The notes under the pieces: model-generated | The model's database searches: none | Seen by the model: only the letters and a program-made list of their open reading frames with translations | What the model was told of the DNA's origin: nothing | Made by a program: the position numbers and the translations under genes | DNA from: an uncultured Bacilli bacterium | Lineage (GTDB): Bacteria; Bacillota_I; Bacilli_A; RFN20; CAG-826 | DNA: 64,000 bases | Assembly: GCA_934699525.1 (NCBI GenBank) | Contig: CAKUWP010000001.1 | Span: 61,140-125,139, forward strand | Direction of reading: 5' to 3' | Part shown: positions 2,019-46,436 of the stretch, in pieces | How positions within the stretch are numbered: position 1 is the first letter of the stretch | Layout of the letters: every line of letters starts with the position of its first letter

Positions 2019-2447
2019 TTAGTTTTCTTTTTCGTAAAGAAGTCTAGCATCCTCCACGGCCTCATAAAGGGCGGAGAGCCAAACTTTGTCTTTCATCATA
2101 TCGTCCACACATTGATCGTAACTACGGTCAAAGGCATCCGGATCACACAAATAGCAAAAATGGGTATACACGTTATGCGCGTATTCATTTCTGGTTTTGG
2201 TAATCAAGAACAAATACCCATAGTCCCTTTCGGTGAAAAAGGTGTTTTTTCGGCTTTGGTCCAGGGCTTTCATCGCCGTAATGACCTGGCCAAGCGTCAT
2301 CCTCTCTTCATCGATTCGAAGACGGTTCAACGAATAATCGCCTTGCTGCATATGCGCGTAGATGCGCTTGACGTTCTCCTCAACGCATTGGCAATACATC
2401 AGGATTTCGCCCACATTTTGATGGAATTGTTCTAACGTGATTTTCAT
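2019..2447 (-). CDS. hypothetical small protein with HEPN-like Rx4HxxY motif
   Basis: 142-aa ORF from MKITLEQF preceded by AAAGGAGGA; motif RNEYAHNVY near C-terminus; only 10 nt from the downstream aminopeptidase start (likely co-transcribed). Confidence 0.55.
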   Translation of the reverse strand: MKITLEQFHQNVGEILMYCQCVEENVKRIYAHMQQGDYSLNRLRIDEERMTLGQVITAMKALDQSRKNTFFTERDYGYLFLITKTRNEYAHNVYTHFCYLCDPDAFDRSYDQCVDDMMKDKVWLSALYEAVEDARLLYEKEN

Positions 2448-2505
2448 ACCGAGTGAATTGTATCCTCCTTTTGCCTTAAAATAAGTAGCCAAGTGAGGAA
2501 TCTTT

Positions 2506-3273
2506 ATGAAATTTGTCTCCTTCAACGTCAACGGCATCCGTGCCATCTTAAATAAAGGGTTTCCGGAAGCGTTTGCTTCTTTCGATGCCGACGTCGTGTT
2601 TTTGGAAGAATCCAAATATAGCGAAACCGATCATTCTTCTTTCCCTTTTTCTCCAGAAGGTTACCAAACCTATTGGACCGTTTCTAAACTAAGAAAAGGA
2701 TATTCTGGGGTCACCGCGTTCACCCGCATCCCTCCTCTATCCGTCCATTATGGATTAAAAGAAGGGAAATATGACGAGGAAGGGCGTGTCATCACCTTGG
2801 AATTTGAGGAATTTTATTTTGTCGGAGCCTATGTTCCCAATTCGGGAGAGGGTCTAAAACGTCTGGATTTCCGTCTTCAATATGAAAAAGATCTGCTCGA
2901 ATACCTCGGCGAATTGTCCGCAAAAAAACCGATTGTCTATACGGGAGACCTAAACGTCGCCCACCAAGAAATCGACATCAAAAACCCGAAAGCGAACATC
3001 CACAATGCTGGGTTCACCCAAGAAGAAAGAGATGCGTTCACCCATCTTTTAAGCCAAGGATACACGGATACCTTCCGCTACCTTCACCCCGATGAAGTCA
3101 AATATTCTTGGTGGAGTTATCGTTTCCACGCGAGAGAAAATAACGCCGGCTGGCGCATCGATTATTTTGTTGTCAGCAACGAAATCGCATCCAAAGTCCA
3201 AAAAAGTGAAATCCTCAATGACGTCTTCGGAAGTGATCATTGCCCCATCCTTTTAGAAGCGGATTTACACTGA
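2506..3273 (+). CDS. xth: exodeoxyribonuclease III (ExoIII/Xth family AP endonuclease)
   Basis: MKFVSFNVNGIRA N-terminus, YWSYR/GSDHCP C-terminal motifs typical of ExoIII; GTGAGGAA RBS. Confidence 0.9.
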   Translation: MKFVSFNVNGIRAILNKGFPEAFASFDADVVFLEESKYSETDHSSFPFSPEGYQTYWTVSKLRKGYSGVTAFTRIPPLSVHYGLKEGKYDEEGRVITLEFEEFYFVGAYVPNSGEGLKRLDFRLQYEKDLLEYLGELSAKKPIVYTGDLNVAHQEIDIKNPKANIHNAGFTQEERDAFTHLLSQGYTDTFRYLHPDEVKYSWWSYRFHARENNAGWRIDYFVVSNEIASKVQKSEILNDVFGSDHCPILLEADLH

Positions 3274-4798: not shown

Positions 4799-7700
4799 AT
4801 GTATTTATCTAAAATTTCCTCTTCGCAACTTCAATCTTGGAAAGACTCCCTTGTTGGAACAAGCGGAGAATCCACCTTAACGCATCTTCAAAACGGGGAA
4901 TACACCCTTTATTTTCGGATTGTTTCCAGCAATGAAAGCATCACCTATGAAGCTTATTCTCCGAATTATCCCCTCATTGGTCTGAACATAGGACCCGATC
5001 TCCTTTTGCATGAAGCCTACATCCGAAGGGAATATACCGAATACGATCGAAATGCCCTCGCTTATTTCATCGCGACAAAAGAAAAAAGCGAGGACGAAGA
5101 GACTTTACGTGCCCGTTATGGGTCCGACTTCGATACCTTAGACCGTCTATCCTCCTTTAATAAGCAAGAACGCGAAGATTACCTAGCCAACAAAGCCGAC
5201 TTCCAAGACCTATTGAAAGATCTTCAAAGCGATTCCATGGGGGACGTATGTCATTTAAAGCCTCAATTGAGCTTTGATTTAACTTCTCCCAAAGGAAGAA
5301 CGGCTCCCCAAATCATCCCCGTAATTGTTGGAGAAGGAAGACACTTAACTCGTTCCATCCCCGCCTTTTTGGCTCAGGTTCACCGCGGATCCTCCATTCA
5401 CGATGGCCGAGGAAATTACCTTTCCCTCGATATCGATTCCTTTTCTCCGCAAGATCAACGGATCATCTTCTTTTTGTCTCAACATTTTTCGCCCGATTCC
5501 TATTATCCCGATATCACGCTAGAAGTATTCGTCGGTCTATTGCTTCTATGCAAAGGCAAAACCGTCAATCTTGACGACGAGCTTTATGAGGTGGATAACG
5601 AAGTCCGAAAAATCGAAATCGAAGCTGACGATGAAGGAAAACTTCAATTAGGCGGACTAGTCTCCCCCAATTCCTTGTTCCTTTATAAAACCAACGCCAT
5701 TCAACCCATCAAAGCAACCAAAAAGATTCTTCTTTATGCGTTCGCCTCTTTAAAATCGAGTCGGGTCGCTCAATTCATTTTGGCTCACCCCTCGTTCCCT
5801 TATCAGGATCTTCAGGATCAAATCGGCGCGGATTTATTGCCCTTAATGAAGCAAAATGACATCCACGTCTCCCCTGTTTTCCAAGAAAAGTCCAATCAAG
5901 TCCGTACCTACATCGCCTATTATTTGGATTACGAGGAAGGGAGCGAGAACGCGAAGCCGTCCCTAGAAATGCGAACCGAATTCAAGTCCAGAGGCCAAAC
6001 GATTTCCTTGCAGGATTACTTAAATTCCCCTCGTAACGTCTACGATAAATTCCGCGTGTGTTTAGCAGACCTTGGCTTATCCGAATCGGGAACCGTCCAA
6101 GGGGATGAGGCGATTGGAGCCATTTTAGACCGCGATTTGTCCCCGTTAAGCGAATTTGCTTCCCTTTATCTTTCGGATAATATCGCCAATATCACCGTGA
6201 ACCACCAGAAATCTGGAATTCGTTTACGAACCGAAAGTGGATTAGACTGGTTTGATGTCTCCTTTTCTTCCGATTCCTTAACCCCCGAAGAGGTCAACTT
6301 GATTCTTAATGCCTACCGGAAGAAGAAAAAATACGTCCGCGTAGGGAATAATTATTATGCGACCGACGAGGAAAGCCTCTCGAAAGCGATTGAGCAATTT
6401 TCTCCTAGCGAGGAGGGACTTACTACCGAGCATCTTCCTCTATATAAAGCCCTTAACCTCCGCCTCGACGACGGGTTAAGCGTTGAAATCGACGATCGGC
6501 TGGAAGACCTCTTCGATTCCTTACTCCATTTCCAATCCGCAGAATTGCCTTTATCCTCCTCCCTAGAATCCGCTTTACGACCCTATCAAAAAGATGGGGT
6601 CCGTTGGTTATGGACGTTAGCAAGCAATGGGCTCGGCGGCATTTTGGCCGATGACATGGGCTTAGGAAAGTCTCTGGAAATGATTGCTTTCTTATCCTTA
6701 TTAAAGGAAAAGGAAAATATCCTGATCATTTCCCCCAAATCGTTAATCTATAACTGGAAAAACGAATTCGAAAAATGGGATTCTTCCCGTCAAGTAGAAG
6801 TCGTGGAAGGCAATAAATCTAGCCGAAAAAAGACCATCGAAAGAATGAAAGAGGCGGGACAGGGGGTCTTTGTCGTCTCCTATGACTCCCTCCGTAACGA
6901 TGAGGAACTCTACCAAGATATCCTTTTCTCTACCATCGTTCTCGACGAGGCCCAATATATCGCCAACGCGACCGCCTTAAAAACCAAAGCCGTCAAATCC
7001 CTTCATGCGAAGCATCGATTTGTCTTAACCGGTACCCCCATTCAAAACTCCTACATGGATCTATGGTCCATCATGGATTTCTTGATGCCCGGGTATTTAG
7101 ACGGCTACAAAGATTTCCATTTGATGTATAGCTCGCTTGCCGATAATAACCAAGCCCAAATCCATCGTCTAGAAACCCAAATCGCTCCGTTCTTGCTTCG
7201 GAGAACCAAGGAGGAGGTTTTAAAAGACCTCCCGCCAAAAACGGAAGAAATCACCGTGGTTCAAATGGATGATGCCGAAGCCAAACTCTATGAGGCTTAT
7301 TTTACAAACGCCAAAATGACTTTGAAGGATCAAAAAGACAACGGGAGGAGCCGCGTGGCCATCCTCGCTGAGCTCACCCGTCTCCGTCAACTTTGCGTGG
7401 ATCCAAGCGTTTTCGTCTCCAACTATAAAAACTTATCCGCGAAATTAACCCAAACGATTGCCATGGTCAAGGAAGCGATCGCCAGCGGGCACAAAGTTTT
7501 GATTTTCTCCAGTTTCGTCGCGGTTTTAAAACATCTGCAAGACGAGCTTGCCAAATTAAAAATCTCTTCTTCCTTAATTTATGGGGACACCCCTGCCAAA
7601 GAAAGGCTATCTTTAGCGGATCATTTCAATACAAGCGAAGACGAAAAAGTCATGTTAGTCTCCTTAAAAGCCGGTGGAACTGGGCTAAACCTCGTGGGGG

Positions 7701-8609: not shown

Positions 8610-8730
8610 TAGATTTGTCCCAAGCGGCTGCGTGACACCACCGCGGAAGGGAACCCTTCCTTCGTCCTTTGGCAACCTCCCATCCAAAGGCACTTGACGC
8701 GATATCACTACTCTTGGCCTGTGAAGCTTT
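8610..8730 (-). promoter_or_regulatory. THF (tetrahydrofolate) riboswitch, folT motif
   Basis: Minus-strand sequence contains AGAGTAG, GCGTCAAGTG and GGATGGGAG blocks matching the recalled THF riboswitch consensus (AGAGUAG...CGCGUUAAGUG...GGGAUG) in the correct order; internal palindrome GGAAGGGTTCCCTTCC; sits in the 5' leader of the ECF S-component gene. Confidence 0.7.
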
Positions 8731-8776
8731 GATTCTTCAAAGCAACTAATAGTCTAGTGGGCTTCTTCTATTTAGG

Positions 8777-9415
8777 CTAGCCCAAAATCAAGCTCGAATC
8801 GCAAAGGGCGGGATAAACGAGGCGGAAAATGTCCGAGCAAATCTTTTTCCGCTCGATTTGAAGCTCATTGCGGTAAGCGTAATAAATTAAATTGGCGATG
8901 CCCCCGCTGTAGAAATTGATGAGGACGACTTCATCTAGCGTTTTTCCTAATAAGAAAGGATATTCAGCCACCATGTGCTCCATGGCTTGGCGGGTAAAAA
9001 TTGAAAAGTCGCGGAAGAAAGTACCACTGATATCGTTTTTCGCCATTTTTCCCATAGGCAAAGGCATGTCGTCGAGGAAGAAATCGACAATCTCCTTAAT
9101 GACTTTCTTGAAGAATTCTCGTTTCCGTAAAGGATAGGGCTTATAGGACTTTAAAAGAGGGTTGATCCGTTCTTTGATTTTCAATAAATAACGGGTGAAC
9201 ACGAATTGGAGCAATTCATTCTTATCCTGGAAATTGTTGTAGAAAGTATTTTTGGAAATTAGAGCTTGATCCGTGATGTCTTTGACCGACAAATCATCAA
9301 AATTCCTCTCGTTTAAAAGAGTCTCCAAGGCGTCGGCGAGGTCCCGCTTCGTTCGATATACGCGTGCGTCCTCTTTTTTAATCAGTGCCGTATTATCCAC
9401 CACAATTTCTGCCAT
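8777..9415 (-). CDS. TetR/AcrR-family transcriptional regulator
   Basis: N-terminal HTH signature (RTKRDLADALETLLNERNFDDLSVKDITDQALISKNTFYNNF); divergent from ABC transporter genes. Confidence 0.8.
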   Translation of the reverse strand: MAEIVVDNTALIKKEDARVYRTKRDLADALETLLNERNFDDLSVKDITDQALISKNTFYNNFQDKNELLQFVFTRYLLKIKERINPLLKSYKPYPLRKREFFKKVIKEIVDFFLDDMPLPMGKMAKNDISGTFFRDFSIFTRQAMEHMVAEYPFLLGKTLDEVVLINFYSGGIANLIYYAYRNELQIERKKICSDIFRLVYPALCDSSLILG

Positions 9416-9531
9416 AAATCTTTTTCTCTTTTTTCATCGTTTTTGGGCTTGCCATATCCCACAAACCCGACTATATTAACACGTGGAAAGTTTTTGGGCA
9501 ACAGTCCAATATCTTCCAAGGAGGCAAAAAA

Positions 9532-10461
9532 ATGGAACCCGTCATTGAAATTAAAAATCTAACCAAAGATTATGGCCAGGGACGTGGCGTTTTCGATGTT
9601 TCCTTTTCCGTGAATAAAGGCGAATGCTTTGGTTTTTTAGGGCCAAACGGTGCCGGAAAAAGCACGACAATCCGCCACTTAATGGGCTTCAGCGTCCCCG
9701 ATTCGGGCGAGACTTTGATTAACGGGGTCAACTCCCTTCGCGACCGTGACATCACGATGCAAGGGGTCTCTTATATCCCGGGCGAAGTCGCGCTTCCCTT
9801 GGCTTTGAAAGGAAGCGATGTCATCGAAGAACAAGCCAAATTAAAAGGGTTAACCAGTCATGTTTTCCTCGACTGGCTCATCCAAGAATTCGAACTCGAC
9901 CCTTCCTTAACCTGCAAGGAAATGAGTCTAGGCATGAAAAGAAAAATGGCGATTGTCTGCGCCTTCATGAATGACCCCGACGTCATCATCATGGACGAGC
10001 CTTCTAGCGGTCTCGACCCCGAGATGCAGGAAAAGTTCATCCAGCTCATCCGTTTGGAGAAAAAACGGGGCAAAACCATTCTTCTTTCCTCCCATATCTT
10101 TGGAGAGGTGGACTCCTGCTGCGACCGAATCGCCGTCATCAAGGACGGAAAAATTGTCTCTTTGTTTGTTGCGAATGACTTAAAGCACAAAACCGAAAAG
10201 CGTTATCGGTTCTTCTACGCCACGTTAGAAGACGCCGAGAAAGCAAAGAAAACCCTGCTTTCGAAAGGGATCGATGCTCGAAATAGCCCCTCGATTCCTT
10301 CTTGCCTCCATTGCACGGTGGAGGAAACGAATACCGATTTCTTCTTGGCCAGCCTTCCCCAAAAGGGACTAATGGATATGGCGGAGAAGAAAGAAACCTT
10401 GGAAGATTATTTCATGAGCTTCTATAAAGAAGACAAAACCTATGGAGGTGTGAATCAATGA
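9532..10461 (+). CDS. ABC transporter ATP-binding protein
   Basis: Walker A GPNGAGKST, signature LSLGMKRK, Walker B IIMDEP; AAGGAGG RBS. Confidence 0.9.
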   Translation: MEPVIEIKNLTKDYGQGRGVFDVSFSVNKGECFGFLGPNGAGKSTTIRHLMGFSVPDSGETLINGVNSLRDRDITMQGVSYIPGEVALPLALKGSDVIEEQAKLKGLTSHVFLDWLIQEFELDPSLTCKEMSLGMKRKMAIVCAFMNDPDVIIMDEPSSGLDPEMQEKFIQLIRLEKKRGKTILLSSHIFGEVDSCCDRIAVIKDGKIVSLFVANDLKHKTEKRYRFFYATLEDAEKAKKTLLSKGIDARNSPSIPSCLHCTVEETNTDFFLASLPQKGLMDMAEKKETLEDYFMSFYKEDKTYGGVNQ

Positions 10462-36232: not shown

Positions 36233-38245
36233 ATGAACTTTCATGAAAAGAAACCCTTCCTCCATTGTTTGCGGGCTCAAATTTACCCCGACCAATATGC
36301 GGAAGAACGCATCGCCCAAACCGCCTCGTGGTGCGAAAAATACGGCATCCAAAACGTCATCCTCTTCTTTAACGGAGAGGAATATAACGTCGGGCATATT
36401 ACCAAAGAACAGTTGCTGCCTTGGCTAGAAGTCATCAAAAAAGCCAAAAAAGAATTTGCCAAAAAAGGCATCAGCACTTCTTTGAATCCATGGTTTGAAC
36501 TCGGGCATGTTGACCGGGGACGCACCCTTCAACCGGGGCAGCATTTCCAAACCATGGTGGACCGCTTTGGAAATACCTGCACCTTAACCGCCTGCCCTTT
36601 GGATGAAGAATGGAAGTCTTATTATCTAAATTTAATGGCTTTCTATGTCCAAGAAGTCGAACCCGAAGTGCTTTGGATTGAGGATGATTTCCGCCTTCAT
36701 AACCACGATCCCCTTTCTTGGGGTGGCTGCTGGTGCCCCCATCATATGGAGGCCTTTGCCAAAGCCCTTGGAAAAAAGGAAACCCGCGAGGAATTTGTAA
36801 GCCACCTTGAAGAAAAAGACCCCAGCTCAGAAAGAAAAGTTTGGCTGGACGTTTCTTGGGAAACGATGGACGGCTTAGCCAAAGACATTGCCAAAACGGT
36901 GAAAGACCTTCATATTCCTACTTCCATTGGGCTAATGAGCAGCACGCCTTTCCAGCATGCGATGGAAGCAAGAAACTGGGTCCAGCTTCACGAAGACCTT
37001 TGCTACGACGGCCACAAAATCGATCGCTTGCATCTCCCCGCCTATCGCGAAATGGGAGCCAAATCCTATTATTTTGATTTCAACCGCATCACGATGGTGA
37101 ATCGTTCCTTCCTAGGAGACGACTGCGATATCTATCCCGAACTCGAAAACAGTTCCTATAGCGATTTTGTCAAAGACCCCAAATTCCTTTCCTTCCAACT
37201 CGAAGGGGCGTTGCCCGTCGGCATTCAGGGAATGACCTATAACATCTTCCAATGCGCGGGGAATGGTTGCCAGGAAGAACTAGGTTACGGCCCGGTCATT
37301 CAAGGGCTTAACCCTTACCTCAACGCGGTTAAAGATTTGGATTTAAAGCCCTCCAAGATGCGGGGCATTGTTTTCCCCATCGACGAAAAGACCGTCTATC
37401 ACCGTAAAAAACAGGGTTTCTTAAATCTTATCCCCGATGATTTTGATGCGATTGGATACCTCTCTTCGCTAGGGTATTCCTACGTTTGCAGCAAAGAAAA
37501 GAAATTTGAGAATCAAGTCGTCGCCCTCATCAACCAAAATGTTTATAACTTCTCCGATGAAGAGCTTCGCGATCTATTCGCCCATAACTTTATCTATTTG
37601 GATGGTGGGGCCGTATTGGCTTTGCAGGACCGGGGGTTATTATCCTTAATCCACGGCAAGGAAGCCACCTTCCGCGGCCAAGCCCATAGGTACGACTGCT
37701 TTGAAATGTTAGAACAAGGAACGCTTCATGACATGCACCATTATCGGGCTTCCAGCCAACGTCGCGCGGGAGATTACGTCAAAATCGAATACGAAGACGG
37801 AATTCAAATCCCTACAGGCCTCTATGATCCGTTCATGAAGCGGACAGGAAATGGGATTGCCATCGGAACGAACTTCTTCGTCTATCCTTACGTTTTAAAA
37901 GGAACGGAGTCCACAGACTATTTTGTGGAATTGCGTCGAAAAATGATGGAGCAGCACTTCTTATCCCACGTCTCCACCCCTCTAGTCTATGTTCATCACG
38001 ATGCCGTTTATCCTTATCTTTATCGGCAAAACGAACACACGTATGCCCTCTTTTTAAGCAATGCGAATTATAACGACTTCTCTTCCCTTGAAATTAGTCT
38101 TAAGGGAATTAGCCCCAAGAAAGTTGCAGTTTTGGACCACGATGGAAATTGGAGAGAAGCCCATTATGAATTAGAAGAAGGGACGCTTCATCTCCACGAA
38201 AAGCTTGGTTATCTTTCCACGTTAACCCTGCTTTTAGAAGAATAA
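36233..38245 (+). CDS. hypothetical 670-aa protein (possible novel glycoside-hydrolase-like enzyme)
   Basis: AAGGAGAAA RBS; no family recognised; embedded between SGNH hydrolase/esterase and ROK kinase genes. Confidence 0.6.
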   Translation: MNFHEKKPFLHCLRAQIYPDQYAEERIAQTASWCEKYGIQNVILFFNGEEYNVGHITKEQLLPWLEVIKKAKKEFAKKGISTSLNPWFELGHVDRGRTLQPGQHFQTMVDRFGNTCTLTACPLDEEWKSYYLNLMAFYVQEVEPEVLWIEDDFRLHNHDPLSWGGCWCPHHMEAFAKALGKKETREEFVSHLEEKDPSSERKVWLDVSWETMDGLAKDIAKTVKDLHIPTSIGLMSSTPFQHAMEARNWVQLHEDLCYDGHKIDRLHLPAYREMGAKSYYFDFNRITMVNRSFLGDDCDIYPELENSSYSDFVKDPKFLSFQLEGALPVGIQGMTYNIFQCAGNGCQEELGYGPVIQGLNPYLNAVKDLDLKPSKMRGIVFPIDEKTVYHRKKQGFLNLIPDDFDAIGYLSSLGYSYVCSKEKKFENQVVALINQNVYNFSDEELRDLFAHNFIYLDGGAVLALQDRGLLSLIHGKEATFRGQAHRYDCFEMLEQGTLHDMHHYRASSQRRAGDYVKIEYEDGIQIPTGLYDPFMKRTGNGIAIGTNFFVYPYVLKGTESTDYFVELRRKMMEQHFLSHVSTPLVYVHHDAVYPYLYRQNEHTYALFLSNANYNDFSSLEISLKGISPKKVAVLDHDGNWREAHYELEEGTLHLHEKLGYLSTLTLLLEE

Positions 38246-38361: not shown

Positions 38362-39327
38362 ATGAGAAAAGTAGCACTTGGTATTGATATCGGTGGCATG
38401 TCCATCAAATCCGCCTTTATGGATGAAGAGGGGACCATTAGTCAGAAATTTGTCCTCCCCGTCCCAAAAGGAGAAGACCAATACGTCACGATGAATCGTT
38501 TGATCGACGCTTGCAAAGTCGCGATTGCGAATTTGCCAGAAGGCGATCTCTTGGTGGGAATTGGTTGCGGCGTCCCCGGGGCTATCAATACTTTCACGGG
38601 TTTTTGCGATTATTCCAATAACCTCGGTTGGAGAAATTTACCGGTTGCTTCCTTATTAGAAAAAGCCCTCGGCTATCCCGTTAAAATCGATAACGATGCG
38701 AATGCCGCGATGCTAGGAGAAATCAAATTTGGATGCGCAAAGCGTTACCATAACGCAGTCCTCATCACCATTGGCACAGGCATTGGAGGCGGTTTATACC
38801 TCGATGACCATCTTTATGTGGGCAATCAAGGAAAAGGAGCCGAACTTGGCCACATGGTGATCGTGGATAACGGCATCCCCTGCACCTGTGGAAGAAAAGG
38901 TTGCTTAGAAAGCTATGCTTCCGCGACCGCCTTGCTTCGCATGACCAAAGAAGCGATGGAAAAACATCCCGAGTCCTTGATGTGGCGGCTTTGCCCCGAC
39001 ATGAACCAAGTCGGTGGAGCGTTGCCTTTTGAGGCGGCGAAAAAAGGAGATGCCGTCGCGCAGGAAGTCTTAGATACTTACATTCATTATTTAGGCGAAG
39101 GCTGCTTGAATTTTGCCAATATCTTCCGCCCGGAAGCGATCATCCTTGCCGGTGGCGTTTCCGAGCAAGGCGAGAATTTGCGGCGTCCTTTGGCCCAATA
39201 TCTAGAAGACCGTGGATACGGATTTGGAACGGGTTTGGTTCCGAAGGTCGATATCCTCATTTCTGAGCTGGGCGCGGACATGGGAATCTACGGGGCCGGC
39301 GCATTGGGATTCGACGTGGCTAAATAA
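38362..39327 (+). CDS. ROK-family sugar kinase (glucokinase-like)
   Basis: LGIDIGGMSIK N-terminus, ROK zinc motif CTCGRKGCLE. Confidence 0.85.
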   Translation: MRKVALGIDIGGMSIKSAFMDEEGTISQKFVLPVPKGEDQYVTMNRLIDACKVAIANLPEGDLLVGIGCGVPGAINTFTGFCDYSNNLGWRNLPVASLLEKALGYPVKIDNDANAAMLGEIKFGCAKRYHNAVLITIGTGIGGGLYLDDHLYVGNQGKGAELGHMVIVDNGIPCTCGRKGCLESYASATALLRMTKEAMEKHPESLMWRLCPDMNQVGGALPFEAAKKGDAVAQEVLDTYIHYLGEGCLNFANIFRPEAIILAGGVSEQGENLRRPLAQYLEDRGYGFGTGLVPKVDILISELGADMGIYGAGALGFDVAK

Positions 39328-39342
39328 GCTTGCTAGTTAGAA

Positions 39343-39738
39343 ATGAAAATAGCCCCGCCCCCGTTATTCCTTCTTCTAACGTTAACTACCTTATCATCTG
39401 CTTGCTCTTTCGCAGAAAAACAGGTGAGTTTGACCTTTATTCAGCACACCTTCCTTGAATCTTCATAGGAAGTAAGCGGTGGCTACTACTTTCGGGATGA
39501 TGAATTAGCCAAAACGGTTTTTGAGTACGATCGCGGTTACGAACTAACCCAGGACGATATCGAGGGGTTTGGTTGCTATTCTTTAAATTATGACGTCCCG
39601 GAATTAAACGGGGACGGGTATTTTGCTTTTACCTTTTTCACCACTTCTTTCGATCCAGAAACCGGGTATTCCTGCGATTTCTTACGGCCATGTAAGCTAA
39701 ATAACGACATGACCGTTCATTTTGCAATTTACGGGTAG
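39343..39738 (+). pseudogene. lipoprotein gene interrupted by in-frame TAG (39466-39468)
   Basis: MKIAPPPLFLLLTLTTLSSAC... signal/lipobox, then TAG, then 89 further sense codons in the same frame ending at TAG 39736. Confidence 0.5.
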
Positions 39739-39758
39739 AAAACGGCAGTTGTCTATTT

Positions 39759-40376
39759 TCATAGAGTGCCCTGTGACTTCTCGCGATAGAATAAGGCAAG
39801 CGGAACATCAAAAAATAAAGCAATTCGGTAGATCGTCTGAAACGACCCTTTGTATAAAGCTGCATCGCTGGCGTTATATTTCGATAACGTGGCTTTGCTA
39901 ATCCCCGTTAGGGAACTTAATTTTGGAATCGAGCAGTTTCTTTCTTCGCAAAGAAGCCGCAATATCGTTTTTTCTTGATCTTGCTGGTTAAAATATTCTA
40001 ATAAGGACGAGATATCCATTTCATGATAAATCGAATAAAGTTCCATCATCTTCGTTAATGGCAATTTTAAGAATAAAAGGACAAACGGCTTTCCCGTCCT
40101 CATTCGCAGTTCAAAATAAGAATAGCCACACCAATAAGCGTCATTGTATACGCCAAAGCTTTCGTCCCTATCGATTCTTTGGTTTGTAATATCGAAGAAA
40201 ATTTGCTCCAAGGATCGATTGAAATAATCATCGTATTGTCCTTTTTCCATTTTGCAAACTAGTTCGCTTCTTTCTAGAAATTTCGTAAACGCGGTAAGGT
40301 TCATTTTGTTTTGGACGGTTAAAACAAATAACCTAGAAAACAAATCCTTCACTTTTCTGATATCTAAATTACTCAT
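39759..40376 (-). CDS. hypothetical protein with C-terminal XRE-type HTH; putative antitoxin/regulator partner of the DUF3990-like gene
   Basis: HTH LSSLTGISKATLSKYN; start codon overlaps the stop of the upstream gene (ATGAGTAA). Confidence 0.6.
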   Translation of the reverse strand: MSNLDIRKVKDLFSRLFVLTVQNKMNLTAFTKFLERSELVCKMEKGQYDDYFNRSLEQIFFDITNQRIDRDESFGVYNDAYWCGYSYFELRMRTGKPFVLLFLKLPLTKMMELYSIYHEMDISSLLEYFNQQDQEKTILRLLCEERNCSIPKLSSLTGISKATLSKYNASDAALYKGSFQTIYRIALFFDVPLALFYREKSQGTL

Positions 40377-41025
40377 AATCGGCGATCAAGTCCCTCATCC
40401 TCGTTCCCTTAGAGTAGCGATCCGCGTTTAATAAATCCGCGAAGATCTTATCTGCACCGCTTTTTCTTCTGTAGTAATCTTCCTTAGAGTTTTCAAAAGC
40501 CTCTTGATAGTTTAGAAAACGAACCAAATTAAAGGCTCTTTTTGATATTAAAACGTGTTGTTTTCCAAGGTCGCCGGCCTGAAAAATCTTTTCAAGGGAT
40601 TCCAAGGTGATTTCGCTTCTAACAAAAGATTCGGGGAAACGAAAATAGCTGTCATCTGCACGATATCCAATGACAATGTCAAAACGAGAAATATCAATGA
40701 GGTGCTTTTCTTCTAGATATTTTAATTCTCTTGGAAAATTATCTCTTAAATCCGTGGATAATTCCCGGTTTTGCATGAGCAAAGCAACCCAATATAAAAC
40801 GTTGTTATAGGGTGGGATCGTTAGGTCCAATATTTTTAATCGGTCATCGCGAATGCTGTATTTATTAATATAACCGTGCCCACTTCTTTTTGCCGCCCAT
40901 TCTTTGGCAAGTTCTTTGTTCGAACAGCAATAAAATCCAAGGCCGTAATCATTGTGTGTATTGCCTTTGCCGTGTTCTGGTTTTTCAACAATAAATTCGC
41001 TTCCGTGATAGATAATTCTTTCCAT
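40369..41025 (-). CDS. DUF3990-like protein (putative toxin component)
   Basis: N-terminal IYHGSEFIVEKPEHGKGNTHNDYGLGFYC signature recalled as DUF3990; promoter TTGACA-17-AATAAT upstream. Confidence 0.6.
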   Translation of the reverse strand: MERIIYHGSEFIVEKPEHGKGNTHNDYGLGFYCCSNKELAKEWAAKRSGHGYINKYSIRDDRLKILDLTIPPYNNVLYWVALLMQNRELSTDLRDNFPRELKYLEEKHLIDISRFDIVIGYRADDSYFRFPESFVRSEITLESLEKIFQAGDLGKQHVLISKRAFNLVRFLNYQEAFENSKEDYYRRKSGADKIFADLLNADRYSKGTRMRDLIADYE

Positions 41026-41064
41026 GCCTCTATTATTATTTATGTAGGTGTTTTTGTCAATTTG

Positions 41065-41080
41065 ATATACTGCAGTATAT
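41065..41080. promoter_or_regulatory. perfect 16-bp palindrome ATATACTGCAGTATAT abutting the -35 of the DUF3990 operon promoter (candidate operator)
   Basis: Read directly; -35 TTGACA = minus strand of 41055-41060. Confidence 0.55.
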
Positions 41081-41235
41081 TATTTTCACATTTTTGCATA
41101 CACATCATCAAAAGATTAAAATGGCGAAAAGCTAAGATGAGCTCCTTTTTCACGCGATATCAAAAGGGGGCACTCTCTTTAACTCGTTGCGGCATCCCTC
41201 CCCATTCCGTTAAAATTACGAAAAGAGGTACCACC

Positions 41236-42627
41236 ATGATTGATATCGATGAAATGACGAGGCTTTTAGAAAAGCGACCTTTGGATCTTCTTGTTTATTC
41301 CTTAAAAGACGAAAGGTTCCTCCGCGAAGATGAAATGAAGAAAATGGATCTTTCAAAAGATTAAGAAGGGTTCTGTTATTTATGCGGACCCGAAACTTGT
41401 TACAAGGCCGCCCGCGGCGTATTCCGTAACAAACACCGCGACTTTTTCCCAAAAGCTCCTTCCTCTTATTCCTATAAGAAATGGTTTGAAACCATCGAAG
41501 AAAAGAACCTTGAAAACGAATGGTTTCTAGAGCTTCGTCAAGCCCTGGCGGAGAATTTTACCCAGTTCACCAAACATTATGGACTTCAAGAGACGGAAGC
41601 GCCTGTTTCTTTTTATGAAGAAATCAGGAAAGAACTCGTAACCCTGGAACAAGCTCATTATGAGAAGCGATACAGCGACATGGTTCTTTTTCACCTTCGG
41701 ACCCCTTATGACGTTGTCCCCTTTACGATTTTAGGCAACGCCGGGGACGTCTTCGGCATCAGTTTCTATCCTTGCGACGATGATGCCACCTGCTTTTTAA
41801 GAGCCCAATTAGGCGAAGCCCTACACATGGATCAGCACACCCTCTCCACTTTATCGGATATGCTTTCCTTTTATTTCGAAAAAGAAGGGGAAAATGACAT
41901 GGAAGTCACAGACAACCCCCTTGGAAACGATAACCGTTACACCTCCCTTTATGTGGCAAGCGGCTCCTTTATGAAGGTCTATCTCCCAAAATCCATCGCC
42001 ATCCGTGCCTTGGATTACTTAAAAAAAGCCAATCTCATGATGTCTATTTTCGATAAAACCAAAAGCAAAACCATCGAAGACCATCAATTCTATGATGTTT
42101 ATCTCGATATCGAACGCCCCATTCCCATGGTCTTTGAAAAAGACATCGACGAAGATGCGGATGCCGCTAACCTCTTCCCGATGATCGACCCCGAGGTCTT
42201 TTCGGAAACGAGATACCGTTACGCTACCAGCAAAGAATGGGAGATGACGATTCGTGCATTGCCCAACTATTTCTTCGATTCAGAAGATTCCGTGAAACGG
42301 GGGCATTCTGGTCTCATTTGTCTTGCCTGCGACCGCAAAACGGGGCGCATCGAAATGTATGAAATCGGGGAATGCGCCAATTTCCATCTTTTCGACGACT
42401 TAGTCCAAAGACTAGAAAAGAAATTTAAAGACATCCGGATCCCCAAGAAAATTTACGTGAATACGTATTTGGATTTTGTTTTCTTCCCACTTTTCTTCGA
42501 AAAAGACTTTTTGGACAAGAAAGTGGAGATCATTCCAACAACAAGCGATTTAGTGACCGATGAAGCCTTTGAAAAGATGTTGGAATACTTCTCCATGGCC
42601 GCCGAAGAAGACGTCCATAAGTGTTAA
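41236..42627 (+). pseudogene. hypothetical gene interrupted by in-frame TAA (41362-41364); intact part 41680-42627 is 315 aa
   Basis: ORF MIDIDEMTRLLEKRP... (AAGAGG RBS) runs 42 codons to TAA, then 105 sense codons with protein-like composition and no ATG/GTG/TTG, in frame with the 41680 ORF. Confidence 0.45.
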
Positions 42628-42631
42628 TTCC

Positions 42632-44059
42632 TTAAAAGCGAAATAAATCATCCAAGGTGATAATGTTGGTGAAAACGGAGGAATATTCGTTTTTATAAAT
42701 TCCATAGGTTGTCACCAAGGTATTCCGGATAGAGGCTTTTTTGGAAATTTTTTCTTTCACCGCGTTGGCGCGGCGATTGACCTTTAAGAAGTTTTCGTTA
42801 TCCAATTTGTATAAATCGGAATAAAACTTCATTTCGCAGAGATTGACGACGTTATCTTTTCTAGCCAAGACCATGTCAATCTGCACACCATCATCTTGGG
42901 AATAATAGGCGCTACACGTCGAGCTTACCCCCGATACCCCAAGAGCAAACTTCATTTGATCCACATGATTGAAGCAGACGCGTTCAAAAGAGAAGCCCGC
43001 CCAAGCATTCATTTTGGAATTTGAAATATTTTCGCTGAAATAGTTTTCGTTTTCGACATTGGATTGGCAGAAATTCAAATAGAAAAGGCAGAAGGGATCC
43101 ATTAATTTGTAATAAGCTTCTCGTTTGCTATATCCAAACGGCACGTATTTAACGATGAAGTCGCTGGCCAAAAGACCATTTAAATAATTCGTTAATGTTC
43201 CACCCTCCGATATTTTGGTTCTTGTGGCGATTTCCTTTTTGGTAAAGCCGACGCTATTCGCATAAAGGAGTTTCACGATTTCCTTGGCCTTCTCACTATA
43301 GGTGAATGTGGAACGGAAAAGGCGGTCGAATTCCAGCTTCAATTTGGCGTTATTTTTGAAAAAGAGGTTATCGATATTTTGCGGCAAGGAATATTGGCCT
43401 TCGACGTAATTCAAGTAATAAGGAATTCCGCCGAAAACCATATATGCCATCGTAATGTCATACCGTGAGAGGTGGATGCCTCTGTTTTTAAAGAGTTCTT
43501 CGCATTCGAACAAATCGAAAGGACCCAATTTAATTTCATAAGTAACGCGCCCATAAAGACCGCCATGGTTATTGATGAGGTTATTTTCCATCCACGAGGT
43601 CGCGCTGCCACAAACAATAATCATGAGATTGTCTTTTGCGCATCCATAGGAATTCCAAAATCCTTCCAACGCTTGGATGAAATCCGAACCCCTTGTATCC
43701 ATCCAAGGCAATTCGTCAATAAAGACAACAAGTCGTGAACCATCATCCTTTTGGGTAATGAGTCTTCTTAAAAGAAAGAATGCCTCAAGCCAATTTTTAG
43801 GGGCTTCGCATTCCTCCAGCCCATAAGCGAGAAGGTTGAGATAAAACTGGTTTAATTGTTTGGCCGTCTCTTTGCCCGAATCGCCCTCTTCTTCTGGGGC
43901 CAAACCGGCATGTTTAAAAAGAAATCGATCGGAGAAGACCTGATTAATCAGATAAGTTTTCCCGATTCTTCTTCTCCCATAGACAGCGACTAATTCCGCC
44001 TGTTTGGAACCGTATAGTTTTTCCAGTTCTTGAATTTCTTTTTTTCTGCCAATCATCAT
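42632..44059 (-). CDS. AAA+ ATPase of unknown function (DUF234-type)
   Basis: MMIGRKKEIQELEKL...VYGRRRIGKTYLI P-loop, VFIDELPW Walker B; the ORF-track N-terminal extension is a translated hairpin. Confidence 0.75.
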   Translation of the reverse strand: MMIGRKKEIQELEKLYGSKQAELVAVYGRRRIGKTYLINQVFSDRFLFKHAGLAPEEEGDSGKETAKQLNQFYLNLLAYGLEECEAPKNWLEAFFLLRRLITQKDDGSRLVVFIDELPWMDTRGSDFIQALEGFWNSYGCAKDNLMIIVCGSATSWMENNLINNHGGLYGRVTYEIKLGPFDLFECEELFKNRGIHLSRYDITMAYMVFGGIPYYLNYVEGQYSLPQNIDNLFFKNNAKLKLEFDRLFRSTFTYSEKAKEIVKLLYANSVGFTKKEIATRTKISEGGTLTNYLNGLLASDFIVKYVPFGYSKREAYYKLMDPFCLFYLNFCQSNVENENYFSENISNSKMNAWAGFSFERVCFNHVDQMKFALGVSGVSSTCSAYYSQDDGVQIDMVLARKDNVVNLCEMKFYSDLYKLDNENFLKVNRRANAVKEKISKKASIRNTLVTTYGIYKNEYSSVFTNIITLDDLFRF

Positions 44060-44067
44060 TTCCAAGC

Positions 44068-44108
44068 AATCAGCCACGAAGCAACAAAATTCCGTTTCGT
44101 GGCTGATT
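44068..44108 (-). promoter_or_regulatory. stable hairpin in the 5' leader of the DUF234 ATPase gene (copy 1 of a duplicated palindromic element)
   Basis: AATCAGCCACGAA-15 nt-TTCGTGGCTGATT, 13-bp stem, ends 8 nt before the start codon; downstream of promoter TTGACG-17-GATAAT (44123-44151, minus). Confidence 0.6.
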
Positions 44109-44231
44109 TCCTTTCTAAAGTAATTATCGCTTGAAAGCAACTTAACGTCAATATTTTGGATAATATATAGAATTTATCGTAGTAATTTTGCAAAATAGTG
44201 GTCGATTTATAAAATTTCGTTGAACTTACAA

Positions 44232-44330: not shown

Positions 44331-46436
44331 TCACGCTTTATTTGGATAGTCCAACGTTCCTGCTAAAAGCGATGGCATGTCCTCATCGGAGATAACGTAG
44401 ATTCCATCCGCCCGGAGATAGGAACCATGACCAAACTCCTGATTAACGCCAGGGGCCCTGTTCCCTCCCCCAATAAAGCCCATGGATGCGGTCCCGTGGC
44501 AGAACACGCAAACTTTTTGGTTCGCAGAGGAGACGAAATGGCCTTCCAGTTTTTGGTATCCGCATCCGCATCTCTTCCAATGCTGGCGATTCGTTTTCCA
44601 TTGGTAAGTGATGTTGTCATGGTGTTCGATGGGGGTGCTGCGCACTTCGATGGATACCGGCTGGAAGCGAGCATATTCCCCGTTTTTGACACGGAAATAC
44701 ACTTTCTCCCCTTCCGCCAGTTCAACATCCAAATGAGCGCCAATGGAACTATGAGAATTGTTCATCATTCCACCTATGTCCGACTGAAGCATTCCTTCAT
44801 CGGTATAGCCAATTGGGGCGGAAGCAAACGTCGCAAGTTCCAGTTGTTCATTTGAGGATTCATAAGGCAGCTCCACACAATATGTTCCCGCCTGTTCCGC
44901 CGTGAATGAGCAGAGAGCATAATCGCCTCGATAAGCATAAATGGAAGACGGGACGTCAACCTTCAACGGTTTGTCTTCGTGGGCAACGTCTGAAAAATCC
45001 GCGATAGGAGCCGTTCTAAGAGGCGTTTGTGGATCCTCTTGGAATTTAAAACCATAGAATCGACCACGCTGAAATACATTGGTCGCGATCTTACGAACGC
45101 AATCATCGGTGTGATTATCCCGTATCCAGTTGAAGTTATCAGCGAGAATATCACCTGTCACTGATGTGTCGATAACAGAACGGGGCCCTTTGGGAAGAGC
45201 TGAGTAGTCCTCTTTCCGCATTTTGTAATAAACGGGGATTTCGATAACGCGATAGCCTATTTGGTCTTCAGATTTTTCCAAAGCGCTAGCCAAATTAATA
45301 AACGTCCTTCTATACGCCTCAACAGTACTCGTCGACGTTAATAAGCGAGGCAATATAAGTTCTAAAATCGCCGCAGCAGCATCCAAGGCATAACTAGCAA
45401 TGGTGGTGATGGTGGATACAAGAGGATTAGGAATATAATTTCCCGCTATCCCTAAAAACTCCGCAGTAACCGTCAGCGTTTTTTCAGTGACGTTGAAAGC
45501 AACGGTGATTTTCTTGTTTTTTAATTCGATGTCTTGCTTTAACGTGGCAAGATAATTAATGAGATCAGCGGCAACCTTTCGAATCACAGAAATTAAATCT
45601 TCATCCCAAAGATAGTACCTAGCAAGTTCCAGGGGTTGGTCTTTGGCGTACTCATATAAGTCATCCAAATAGTACTCTGGACTTGCAATGTTTGCTTGGG
45701 AGTCGTGATGGTAAGCGATGATTGAAGGCCTTTGCAAAACCGCAGCACAGTTGTTAAAGGGAATATCGTTTAGCCACATGGCACCCGCAAGACGCTTATT
45801 AAACATGGCATCCTCCATGTTAAGGCCTTCATATCCATCCCATTGATAATCATCGGTGCTTACAGTAAGGTCATACTGGATTTTGCTTGGTTTTGCACCC
45901 GTGCTTAGATAGTCCAAACTAATGAAATAAGTTCCAGCCTTTGCAAGAAAATCAACAGTTTGAACATTGCCAACCGTATCTTCATCCGATTCGTAAATCC
46001 AAGACAATTGATGATTTAAATTTCCCAAAAATTCATAACTTGATTCATCGTTTGTTTGGAAAATTTCATAATTGTATTGTCTTACGGCGAGATGGATGGG
46101 TTGTTCCGCACTCACTCTGACGTGAACCGGAGTATCCGTCATGCATTTGATATAAAAATTATCTAGGTCACCGGAATAAGATTTACGCTCCAAGACCCCA
46201 TGGGCTTCTGATGTGTAAAGAAAAGAGGACAAATAGGAGTCAGGGGTCATGCAAACAGCAGTATCCAAGGTGTTGTTGTTTTCATAATGATCCTCGACAT
46301 GGAGTTGAGGCGTTCTCTCCGGAGGTATGAAATGTTCGCGATAAGTATTGGAGCCCGTTCCCTCATCGGCAACCGCCGTAGGGACGGACGCCATGGAAAT
46401 ACTGGCCGCTAATAACGTAGCAAAAATACCGAGCAT
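44331..46436 (-). CDS. secreted hypothetical protein (701 aa) with signal peptide and C-terminal Cys/His cluster
   Basis: MLGIFATLLAASISMASVPTAVA signal peptide; C-terminal WKRCGCGYQKLEGHFVSSANQKVCVFCHG; no family recognised. Confidence 0.65.
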   Translation of the reverse strand: MLGIFATLLAASISMASVPTAVADEGTGSNTYREHFIPPERTPQLHVEDHYENNNTLDTAVCMTPDSYLSSFLYTSEAHGVLERKSYSGDLDNFYIKCMTDTPVHVRVSAEQPIHLAVRQYNYEIFQTNDESSYEFLGNLNHQLSWIYESDEDTVGNVQTVDFLAKAGTYFISLDYLSTGAKPSKIQYDLTVSTDDYQWDGYEGLNMEDAMFNKRLAGAMWLNDIPFNNCAAVLQRPSIIAYHHDSQANIASPEYYLDDLYEYAKDQPLELARYYLWDEDLISVIRKVAADLINYLATLKQDIELKNKKITVAFNVTEKTLTVTAEFLGIAGNYIPNPLVSTITTIASYALDAAAAILELILPRLLTSTSTVEAYRRTFINLASALEKSEDQIGYRVIEIPVYYKMRKEDYSALPKGPRSVIDTSVTGDILADNFNWIRDNHTDDCVRKIATNVFQRGRFYGFKFQEDPQTPLRTAPIADFSDVAHEDKPLKVDVPSSIYAYRGDYALCSFTAEQAGTYCVELPYESSNEQLELATFASAPIGYTDEGMLQSDIGGMMNNSHSSIGAHLDVELAEGEKVYFRVKNGEYARFQPVSIEVRSTPIEHHDNITYQWKTNRQHWKRCGCGYQKLEGHFVSSANQKVCVFCHGTASMGFIGGGNRAPGVNQEFGHGSYLRADGIYVISDEDMPSLLAGTLDYPNKA

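Follow-up and report, generated by a model that had tools for sequence, protein, structure and literature searches.

A long-form DUF3990 gene coupled to a helix-turn-helix partner in an uncultured gut Bacilli lineage: a candidate toxin-antitoxin cassette with an ADP-ribosyltransferase fold

Introduction

Several characterized toxin-antitoxin (TA) systems pair a toxin of the ADP-ribosyltransferase (ART) fold with a helix-turn-helix (HTH) antitoxin that also serves as a repressor. Three of them, Xre-RES, ParST and MbcTA, appear to be the closest characterized functional analogs of the two-gene cassette described in this report. The cassette lies in a 64,000-nucleotide stretch of DNA from an uncultured Bacilli bacterium (contig CAKUWP010000001.1, positions 61,140 to 125,139), called "the window" hereafter; all coordinates are those of this window unless another locus is named. 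It comprises gene A (40369-41025, minus strand), an open reading frame (ORF) for a long-form DUF3990 protein of 218 amino acids (aa) that is a predicted ART-fold toxin, and gene B (39759-40376, minus strand), an ORF for a 205-aa predicted antitoxin and autorepressor. We consider it reasonably probable that the pair is an autoregulated TA-type module, in which an NAD+-dependent toxin is inhibited by the N-terminal domain (N-domain) of B, and the HTH of B represses its own leaderless operon through a nested dyad. The module is possibly an abortive-infection or defense cassette.

The resemblance to characterized systems is partial in each case. The toxins of Xre-RES, ParST, MbcTA and NatRT have a RES domain with the residues R-E-S, whereas A is a DUF3990 protein with H-Y-DD and has no RES match. 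The antitoxin gene comes first in Xre-RES and ParST, but the toxin gene is first in the window. Further, the HTH is N-terminal in Xre and ParS but C-terminal in B, whose putative toxin-binding domain is unrelated to theirs; against the NCBIfam family Xre_ParS_antitoxin, B reached only 12 bits (E 0.16), with a cut-off of 90. In MqsRA and HigBA, the toxin gene also precedes that of the antitoxin. The antitoxin of these systems binds the toxin through its N-terminal part, has its XRE HTH at the C-terminus and acts as a repressor at palindromes in its own promoter; the window matches this layout. The toxins of these systems, however, are RNases rather than ART-fold proteins, and B has no homology to MqsA or HigA beyond the HTH. 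DarTG likewise joins an ART-fold toxin to an antitoxin with a domain of the ADP-ribose-processing type, a likeness confined to those variants of B that bear a NUDIX domain. Neither A nor B matches DarT (DUF4433) or a macrodomain, and the B protein of the window lacks any enzymatic domain.

Cassettes with DUF3990 genes also figure among the PDC candidates of PADLOC, which were found by "guilt by embedding" in BREX, DISARM and type I restriction-modification (RM) loci and are explicitly untested (10.1101/2024.01.29.577857). The supplement of that study gives PDC-M42 as FAM_00403>>FAM_03189>>FAM_00360, PDC-M13 as FAM_00109>>FAM_00403>>FAM_00080 and PDC-M10 as FAM_00403>>FAM_01732 (10.1101/2024.01.29.577857). 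Protein A matches PDC-M42A (PDLC04641) with an E-value of 8.5e-37 over aa 3-203 and profile positions 3-204 of 215; it also matches PDC-M13 and PDC-M10, more weakly. An initial annotation of this DNA had labeled the pair a candidate TA or abortive-infection system, and the independent listing of the family of A as PDC-M42A supports this label in silico, as do all the computational tests reported below. In both PDC-M42 and the window, the DUF3990 gene is first and its partner second. In contrast to PDC-M42, the B protein of the window carries a fused XRE HTH (the PDC-M42B profile has only 138 positions), and no BREX, DISARM or RM locus surrounds the window copy.

PDC-M13 corresponds to a clostridial plasmid cassette of C. 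tetani and C. botulinum, in which a DUF3791 gene is followed by a DUF3990 gene (161 aa) and a small ORF (PDC-M13A/B/C). It shares with the window the DUF3990 domain and its conserved residues, compact overlapping genes and an accessory distribution. Unlike A, the clostridial protein is a short form of DUF3990 without the helical insert and C-terminal extension described below, and its partner, a DUF3791 protein of 75 aa, is encoded upstream, whereas B is encoded downstream and is dissimilar to DUF3791. PDC-M13 is abundant in rumen metagenome-assembled genomes (MAGs), where it is among the most frequent PADLOC calls (PMC13356809).

A conserved, overlapping gene pair

Genes A and B share the 8 nucleotides (nt) ATGAGTAA (40369-40376, minus strand), such that B starts within the final codons and the stop of A. 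The initial annotation, all of whose coordinates proved correct, had read this overlap as a sign of translational coupling; the sequence features that it described are all present, and most of them recur in about 40 related loci. A start/stop overlap is present in all 38 loci that have both genes, and its 8-nt form (ATGAnTRA) recurs in 31 of these; it is 14 nt long in six others and 11 nt long in one. The gene layout and its conservation are plain computational observations. The arrangement is, in silico, that of a type II TA system: adjacent small genes in one predicted transcript, coupled translation, a DNA-binding partner and an operator at the pair's own promoter.

Gene B was recovered at 41 loci (designated by numbers beginning with L), and a DUF3990 gene lies directly upstream in nearly all of them, wherever the DNA suffices. 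The exceptions are orphan B genes at L020 and L026 and the deleted copy at L007 described below. Seven more distant representatives of the B N-domain were sampled as well. Four follow an annotated DUF3990 gene, with the overlap; one follows a DUF3990 remnant; and the remaining two, which come from short contigs, overlap an upstream ORF that lacks annotation. Members of the N-domain family of B hardly ever occur anywhere but directly after a long-form DUF3990 gene. The two proteins co-diverge across loci (r = 0.91), and A is the more conserved, with a mean identity of 73% against 56% for B. Both ORFs are intact, and purifying selection is clear across dozens of lineages.

No paralog of A or B occurs elsewhere in the window. 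Two modules can coexist in one genome region, as a rumen contig (L041) with two tandem DUF3990 modules shows: the first (725-2006) is a divergent pair, 43% and 19% identical to A and B, respectively, and the second (2166-3152) is a pair of the window type. No intrinsic terminator is predicted after B, and the 430 nt that separate B from a convergent ROK kinase gene (39328-39758) contain no ORF, predicted intrinsic terminator or Rfam match.

Protein A

The initial annotation had read the N-terminus of A as a DUF3990 signature. The Pfam search bears this out over the full length of the family: A scored 123 bits against PF13151 (cut-off 32.2; E 1.1e-35), covering profile positions 2-152 of 152. 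Pfam places DUF3990 in its ADP-ribosyltransferase clan (PMC7955679), and the N-terminal H-G-S strand of A gives a sub-threshold Pfam match to ART-PolyVal. No solved structure related to A by sequence was detected.

An AlphaFold2 model of A built with 121 homologs (predicted local distance difference test [pLDDT] 86.8; predicted template-modeling score [pTM] 0.84) has the split beta-sheet of the ART fold. The best structural matches of this model are the ART toxins of TA systems, namely MbcT, ParT, Xre-RES and NatT. The model also matches diphtheria toxin, PARPs and the Rhs ART toxins TreX, RhsP2 and TreTu. Matches lower in the ranking include exotoxin A, Xre-RES Res, NatT, TreX, RhsP2, TreTu, AcrF11, Tpt1 and Arr, and the nearest predicted viral structures are the ART-PolyVal domains of phage polyvalent proteins.

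When A is aligned with DUF3990 proteins of 29-100% identity, the invariant residues are H7-G8-S9 in the first strand, D26, G28, F31-Y32 in the second strand, W43-A44, and G120/A123-D124-D125 directly past the fifth strand. In the model, H7 falls in the strand of residues 2-9 and Y32 in that of residues 31-34, and D124/D125 come just after the strand of residues 117-121. In ARTs, the catalytic H-Y-[EDQ] triad is placed on strands beta1, beta2 and beta5, and A appears to have this triad in the form H-Y-D(D). A loose resemblance to H-Y-E transferases had been suggested at the outset; the ART fold and the invariant H7 and Y32 agree with it, but D124/D125 are better candidates than a glutamate for the third catalytic position. 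Compared with the 161-aa clostridial DUF3990 protein, A has an extra helical insert (aa ~76-108) and a C-terminal helical extension (aa ~176-218).

Protein B

Protein B consists of an N-domain (aa 1-136; 39969-40376, minus strand), presumed to bind A or to act as a sensor, and an HTH of the XRE/Cro-C1 type (aa 137-192, the HTH running to ~196; 39801-39968, minus strand), whose recognition helix is roughly ISKATLSKYN. The Pfam scan supports the XRE HTH that had been assigned to the downstream protein. AlphaFold2 models B as one compact all-helical unit (pLDDT 91.5, pTM 0.88). Its homologs number 193 and are ~200 aa long.

The N-domain has no Pfam match at E<=10, no PDB relative by sequence and no similarity to the HTH of B itself. 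It is a previously unnamed domain of 135 aa, whose family we define here; its conserved motifs are D-A-Y-W-x-G and Y-x-x-Y-H-E-M-D. Among 1.84 billion cluster representatives, 231 proteins matched a profile of the N-domain at E<=0.001. In nearly all full-length matches listed, the domain is at or near the N-terminus, and the HTH is present in most proteins of the family. Their lengths cluster at ~200 aa (N-domain and HTH) and at 290-370 aa (with an extra C-terminal domain); a few have ~150 aa.

DUF3791 was considered as an identity for the N-domain and rejected. Besides the absence of any Pfam match at the threshold just given, DUF3791 is not among the 25 most often matched Pfam families listed for 121 B homologs at E<=1, and alignment of the N-domain with a C. 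tetani DUF3791 protein by hhalign gave a probability of 0.2%, which, with a single sequence, is a weak test. The initial annotation had described DUF3990 as usually paired with a small partner; B is not the usual DUF3791 protein but represents a distinct family.

In some B proteins the extra C-terminal domain is a NUDIX domain, as found in the protein P0241 (E 4.5e-13) and in the orthologs of L002 (7995-9092) and L003 (5803-6900), which are 63-64% identical to B (E 1e-12). In these three proteins, the NUDIX region has a further match in PDC-S07, one of the single-gene candidates of PADLOC (E 2.5e-9). Because some B proteins carry this domain, a chemistry of NAD or ADP-ribose is indicated for the module.

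Promoter and nested operator

A sigma-70-type promoter precedes A on the minus strand (41032-41060), with a -35 TTGACA at 41055-41060, a 17-nt spacer and a -10 AATAAT at 41032-41037. It matches 11 of 12 consensus positions and is the best promoter-like site in a 2.4-kb region. Four nt upstream of the -35 ends a perfect 16-bp palindrome, ATATAC-TGCA-GTATAT (ATATACTGCAGTATAT; 41065-41080; dyad center 41072/41073), which occurs once in the window; at up to three mismatches, 0.09 chance matches are expected. Both the promoter and the palindrome had been picked out by the initial annotation, and both are present and conserved; the palindrome, however, is only the inner core of a larger nested dyad that spans the -35, TGTGTA-N18-ATATAC-N4-GTATAT-N18-TACAyA. 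The distal outer box TGTGTA (41099-41104; consensus TGTGTACCTAAAA in 15 loci) and the proximal outer box TACATA (41041-41046; family consensus TACACA) each lie 29 bp from the dyad center, and the proximal one falls in the -35/-10 spacer.

To compare these boxes, the 110 nt that precede A were aligned for 15 loci; DNA further upstream is unalignable. The order is conserved: a distal box TGTGTAC(C)TAAAA, the inner palindrome (G)ATATAy-N4-rTATAT(C), then AAA, TTGACA, a 17-nt spacer with TACACAA (the reverse complement of the distal box) and a TATAnT -10. With the dyad in register, 76% of the alignment cells are complementary, versus 18-54% in registers shifted by 1-3 nt; the outer boxes (helix 1) are 73% complementary. 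Changes on both sides occur at nine of 19 positions, and the inner palindrome has compensatory changes at five of nine. The covariation score is 0.204 versus 0.122+-0.018 in shuffles, and none of 500 shuffles reached it. Since the aligned sequences are mutually related, dyad symmetry is supported, not proven. Further, the operator sequence differs where the recognition helix of B does; L008, for example, combines another B recognition helix (ISTNSLTYYK) with another palindrome (ATGGTA...TACCAT). The element looks like a symmetric operator of four half-sites that brackets the -35 and enters the spacer, and because the proximal box lies between -35 and -10, a protein bound there would block RNA polymerase.

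In the window, the -10 ends 6 nt before the ATG of A (41023-41025), so the A mRNA is probably leaderless. The distance is 6 nt in 12 of the 15 aligned loci, 7 nt in one and 8 nt in two, and no Shine-Dalgarno sequence before the ATG is conserved among them. An AGAGG that ends 1-2 nt before the ATG was considered as a ribosome-binding site for A and rejected, since it lies too near the ATG; it is also unconserved.

A different arrangement is found in an Acholeplasmatales-like clade (L004, L006, L009, L022, L024, L027 and L034). There, a strong, near-consensus TTGnnn-17-TATAAT promoter lies upstream of the whole dyad, which would therefore be transcribed, and GAAAGGA follows the dyad; the resulting 5' untranslated region has ~80 nt and could form a 10-bp hairpin. 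Regulation in this clade may differ from that in the window. A scan of 39200-41700 for known RNA elements returned only a eukaryotic long non-coding RNA family at E 0.4, nothing meaningful.

On the plus strand, promoter-like hexamers (TTGTCA-16-TATATT; 41054-41081) that could serve the divergent gene overlap the A/B operator, and B might thus also affect that gene.

An accessory cassette

The initial annotation had judged the neighborhood of the pair accessory in character, and the comparison with related genomes agrees. The pair is not part of a syntenic core: it is deleted in one relative, sits in unrelated contexts elsewhere and is AT-rich against its surroundings. The GC content is 38.4% for A and 36.9% for B, compared with 46.4% for the window and 46-49% for neighboring core genes. 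At L007, which is 85-89% identical to the window in the flanks at the nucleotide level, a clean deletion of ~1 kb (window ~41240 to ~40262) has removed A entirely, together with the promoter and the first ~38 codons of B; the rest of B is frameshifted. The flanking genes are common only to the window, L007 and L001, a MAG of the same species (human-gut 'Bacilli bacterium HGM10921'). The other genome loci are MAGs of rumen or gut Bacilli, Acholeplasmatales and Solobacterium, and they have only the pair in common with the window. The recurring unit across loci is thus two genes, not a larger element. Collinsella aerofaciens has a more distant two-gene version between yihA and thrB, for which RefSeq gives the names 'DUF3990 domain-containing protein' and 'helix-turn-helix transcriptional regulator'. 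We conclude that the cassette is accessory and was acquired horizontally by this uncultured gut Bacilli lineage.

The ten neighboring ORFs compared with Pfam yielded no recognized integrase, phage, RM or BREX domain, and the window has no tRNA gene and hence no tRNA integration site. Distant DUF3990 genes do occur in six unannotated fecal 'Bacteriophage sp.' contigs.

Mechanism and alternative explanations

The mechanism that we infer, which involves enzymatic activity and toxicity of A, an A-B interaction, binding of B to the operator, a trigger and an anti-phage role, would run as follows. Free A would use NAD+ to ADP-ribosylate an essential macromolecule, or would destroy NAD+, and growth would arrest. 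Gene B would be translated by termination-reinitiation at the 8-nt overlap, and B would therefore be made whenever A is made; its family-specific N-domain would hold A inactive. Its XRE HTH would bind the nested dyad, with four RTRTA-type half-sites in the order -> -> <- <-, and B bound around the -35 and spacer would repress the A/B operon. Loss or titration of B, for example by proteolysis or phage infection, would both free A and de-repress the promoter.

Several facts weigh against this scheme. Toxicity of A is extrapolated by analogy from fold and context, as the searched literature holds no experiment on DUF3990 or the B family. Protein A is 65-80% identical across orders, which is unusual for a toxin and would also fit an enzyme of the housekeeping type. 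The window copy is in no recognizable defense island, and relatives of B are absent from PLSDB plasmids and IMG/VR viral contigs. The dyad of the L004 type could act as an RNA hairpin or a roadblock site. As to PDC-M42, the candidate is listed as three families but the window has two genes; no third gene adjoins the pair, as non-coding DNA extends from B to the convergent ROK kinase gene. The B protein of the window gave no match to the PDC-M42B profile at E<=1. Partners with the architecture of B do match that profile over the N-domain (Collinsella, E 2.4e-5; L041, E 4.6e-5), and B aligns with the L041 partner (BLASTP E 6e-9) and with the Collinsella partner (hhalign probability 89%).

The principal alternative, which we regard as rather unlikely, is that A is a regulated, non-toxic enzyme of the ART fold and B a one-component regulator, with a ligand-sensing N-domain and an HTH through which it controls the operon. 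Such an enzyme might ADP-ribosylate a small molecule or antibiotic, as Arr does, act as an RNA 2'-phosphotransferase in RNA repair, as Tpt1 does, or remove or transfer an NAD-derived group. The strong conservation of A would suit this role, as would the metabolic genes next to the window copy and the RtcB and NADAR genes near one distant module. The N-domain is also large (135 aa), globular and packed on the HTH (pTM 0.88), as in ligand-sensing regulators. Yet the best structural matches of A are TA or secreted toxins, not Arr or Tpt1. Retention of the overlap in all 38 loci suggests two partner proteins made in stoichiometric amounts rather than an enzyme and its regulator. The cassette, which is low in GC, is patchily distributed, and some loci have lost it or retain it in decayed form. 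Finally, DUF3990 is embedded in defense loci and forms the toxin tip at the C-terminus of Rhs5, an effector of Serratia, the latter on domain evidence only (PMC4524185).

Two further explanations seem to us improbable. The low GC content, the variable region around the pair (a broken DUF6930-like gene, an ATPase gene present or absent, a HigB-like pair in L001) and the DUF3990 homologs in the six fecal 'Bacteriophage sp.' contigs would be consistent with a remnant of a mobile element or prophage, in which a Cro/CI-like repressor and an accessory gene persist with no function of their own here. Intact ORFs under purifying selection across dozens of lineages speak against this explanation, however, and it is the two-gene unit that recurs, not a larger element; nor does the window have tRNA genes, IMG/VR a relative of B, or the ten neighboring ORFs an integrase or phage gene recognizable in the Pfam scan. 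By a slight degree the least probable explanation is an NAD-derived signaling pair, in which A would make a nucleotide signal (compare TIR and NADase-type defense enzymes), the N-domain of B would sense it and NUDIX would degrade it. The NUDIX fusions of L002, L003 and P0241, the ART/NAD-binding fold of A and the novel globular domain joined to an HTH could all be accommodated. But ART-fold signal synthases are without precedent in the DUF3990 family, the operon itself is the only regulated target visible, no separate effector gene accompanies the pair, the neighbors are unconserved, and a single type of fusion forms the basis of the proposal.

We also entertain, more tentatively than the autoregulated TA-type module itself, the notion that long-form DUF3990 and its N-domain-HTH partner make up a distinct, widespread family of ART-toxin systems in gut and rumen bacteria. 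If so, the N-domain of B could be a new toxin-neutralizing or sensing domain. The gain of NUDIX by the antitoxin in some lineages could imply that the product of the toxin is an ADP-ribose conjugate that a Nudix enzyme cleaves. Further, a four-half-site operator on a leaderless transcript could give repression that depends on A:B stoichiometry, that is, conditionally cooperative repression.

Significance

DUF3990 is a large family of the ART clan for which, to our knowledge, no substrate, structure or phenotype has been reported, and our literature search for DUF3990, PF13151, DUF3791 and PDC-M42 found no functional study. Genomes from the gut, the rumen and clostridia commonly carry the family. 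The long-form cassette is already catalogued as an untested phage-defense candidate; the present locus is a well-resolved example, not a new class. It is compact, with an intact 1.3-kb cassette, a partner family defined by its N-domain and a mapped operator and promoter. Its value lies in that definition of the partner family, in the clue given by NUDIX, in the mapping of the operator and in the clean natural deletion that can serve as a control. The NUDIX fusion narrows the likely chemistry to that of NAD or ADP-ribose. Should the autoregulated TA-type module be borne out, an ART toxin and an antitoxin domain, both new, would enter the repertoire of TA and defense systems, and the locus would illustrate the regulation of such cassettes in Bacilli with leaderless transcripts. 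If A ADP-ribosylates a new class of target and protects against phage, it would found a new ART defense family beside DarTG, CmdTAC and Xre-RES.

Neighboring genes

In the window, the pair is surrounded by sugar-metabolism genes, an ATPase_2/AAA_14 ATPase gene and genes for unknown proteins. The divergent gene upstream of A is broken in the window: a 42-codon ORF (41233-41361, plus strand) with a good Shine-Dalgarno sequence (MIDIDEMTRLLEK...) is followed by a 315-aa ORF (41680-42627, plus strand). In L001 they form one intact gene for 557 aa (5750-7423) with a sub-threshold Pfam match to DUF6930. The ATPase_2/AAA_14 ATPase (DUF234/DUF4143-type; 42632-44140, minus strand) is present in the window and L007 and absent from L001. 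Genes of this kind also adjoin A/B-type modules at L042-L044, L026, L033 and L045, such that the adjacency recurs in at least five unrelated contexts. This adjacency could be a real association, or the two could merely share variable regions.

In L001, DNA inserted directly after B (8688-10066; window equivalent ~39417-39755) carries a 98-aa HigB/RelE-like gene and a second gene, whose 350-aa HTH product has an HExxH (ImmA/IrrE-like) motif. At this position, the window has ~340 nt of non-coding DNA that do not align. Other TA genes adjoin the module in both L001 and L042, and the site downstream of B looks like an insertion hotspot for TA cassettes.

At L051 (1-5648), a distant module of DUF3990 and N-domain-HTH genes has an RtcB RNA ligase gene upstream and an ADP-ribose-associated NADAR gene ~1.5 kb downstream, a single, anecdotal link to RNA repair and the reversal of ADP-ribosylation.

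The window also has two large ORFs, one of 670 aa (36233-38245, plus strand) and one of 701 aa (44331-46436, minus strand), the latter with an N-terminus like a signal peptide. They have no Pfam match at E<=0.001 and are 97% and 91% identical, respectively, to their counterparts in L001.

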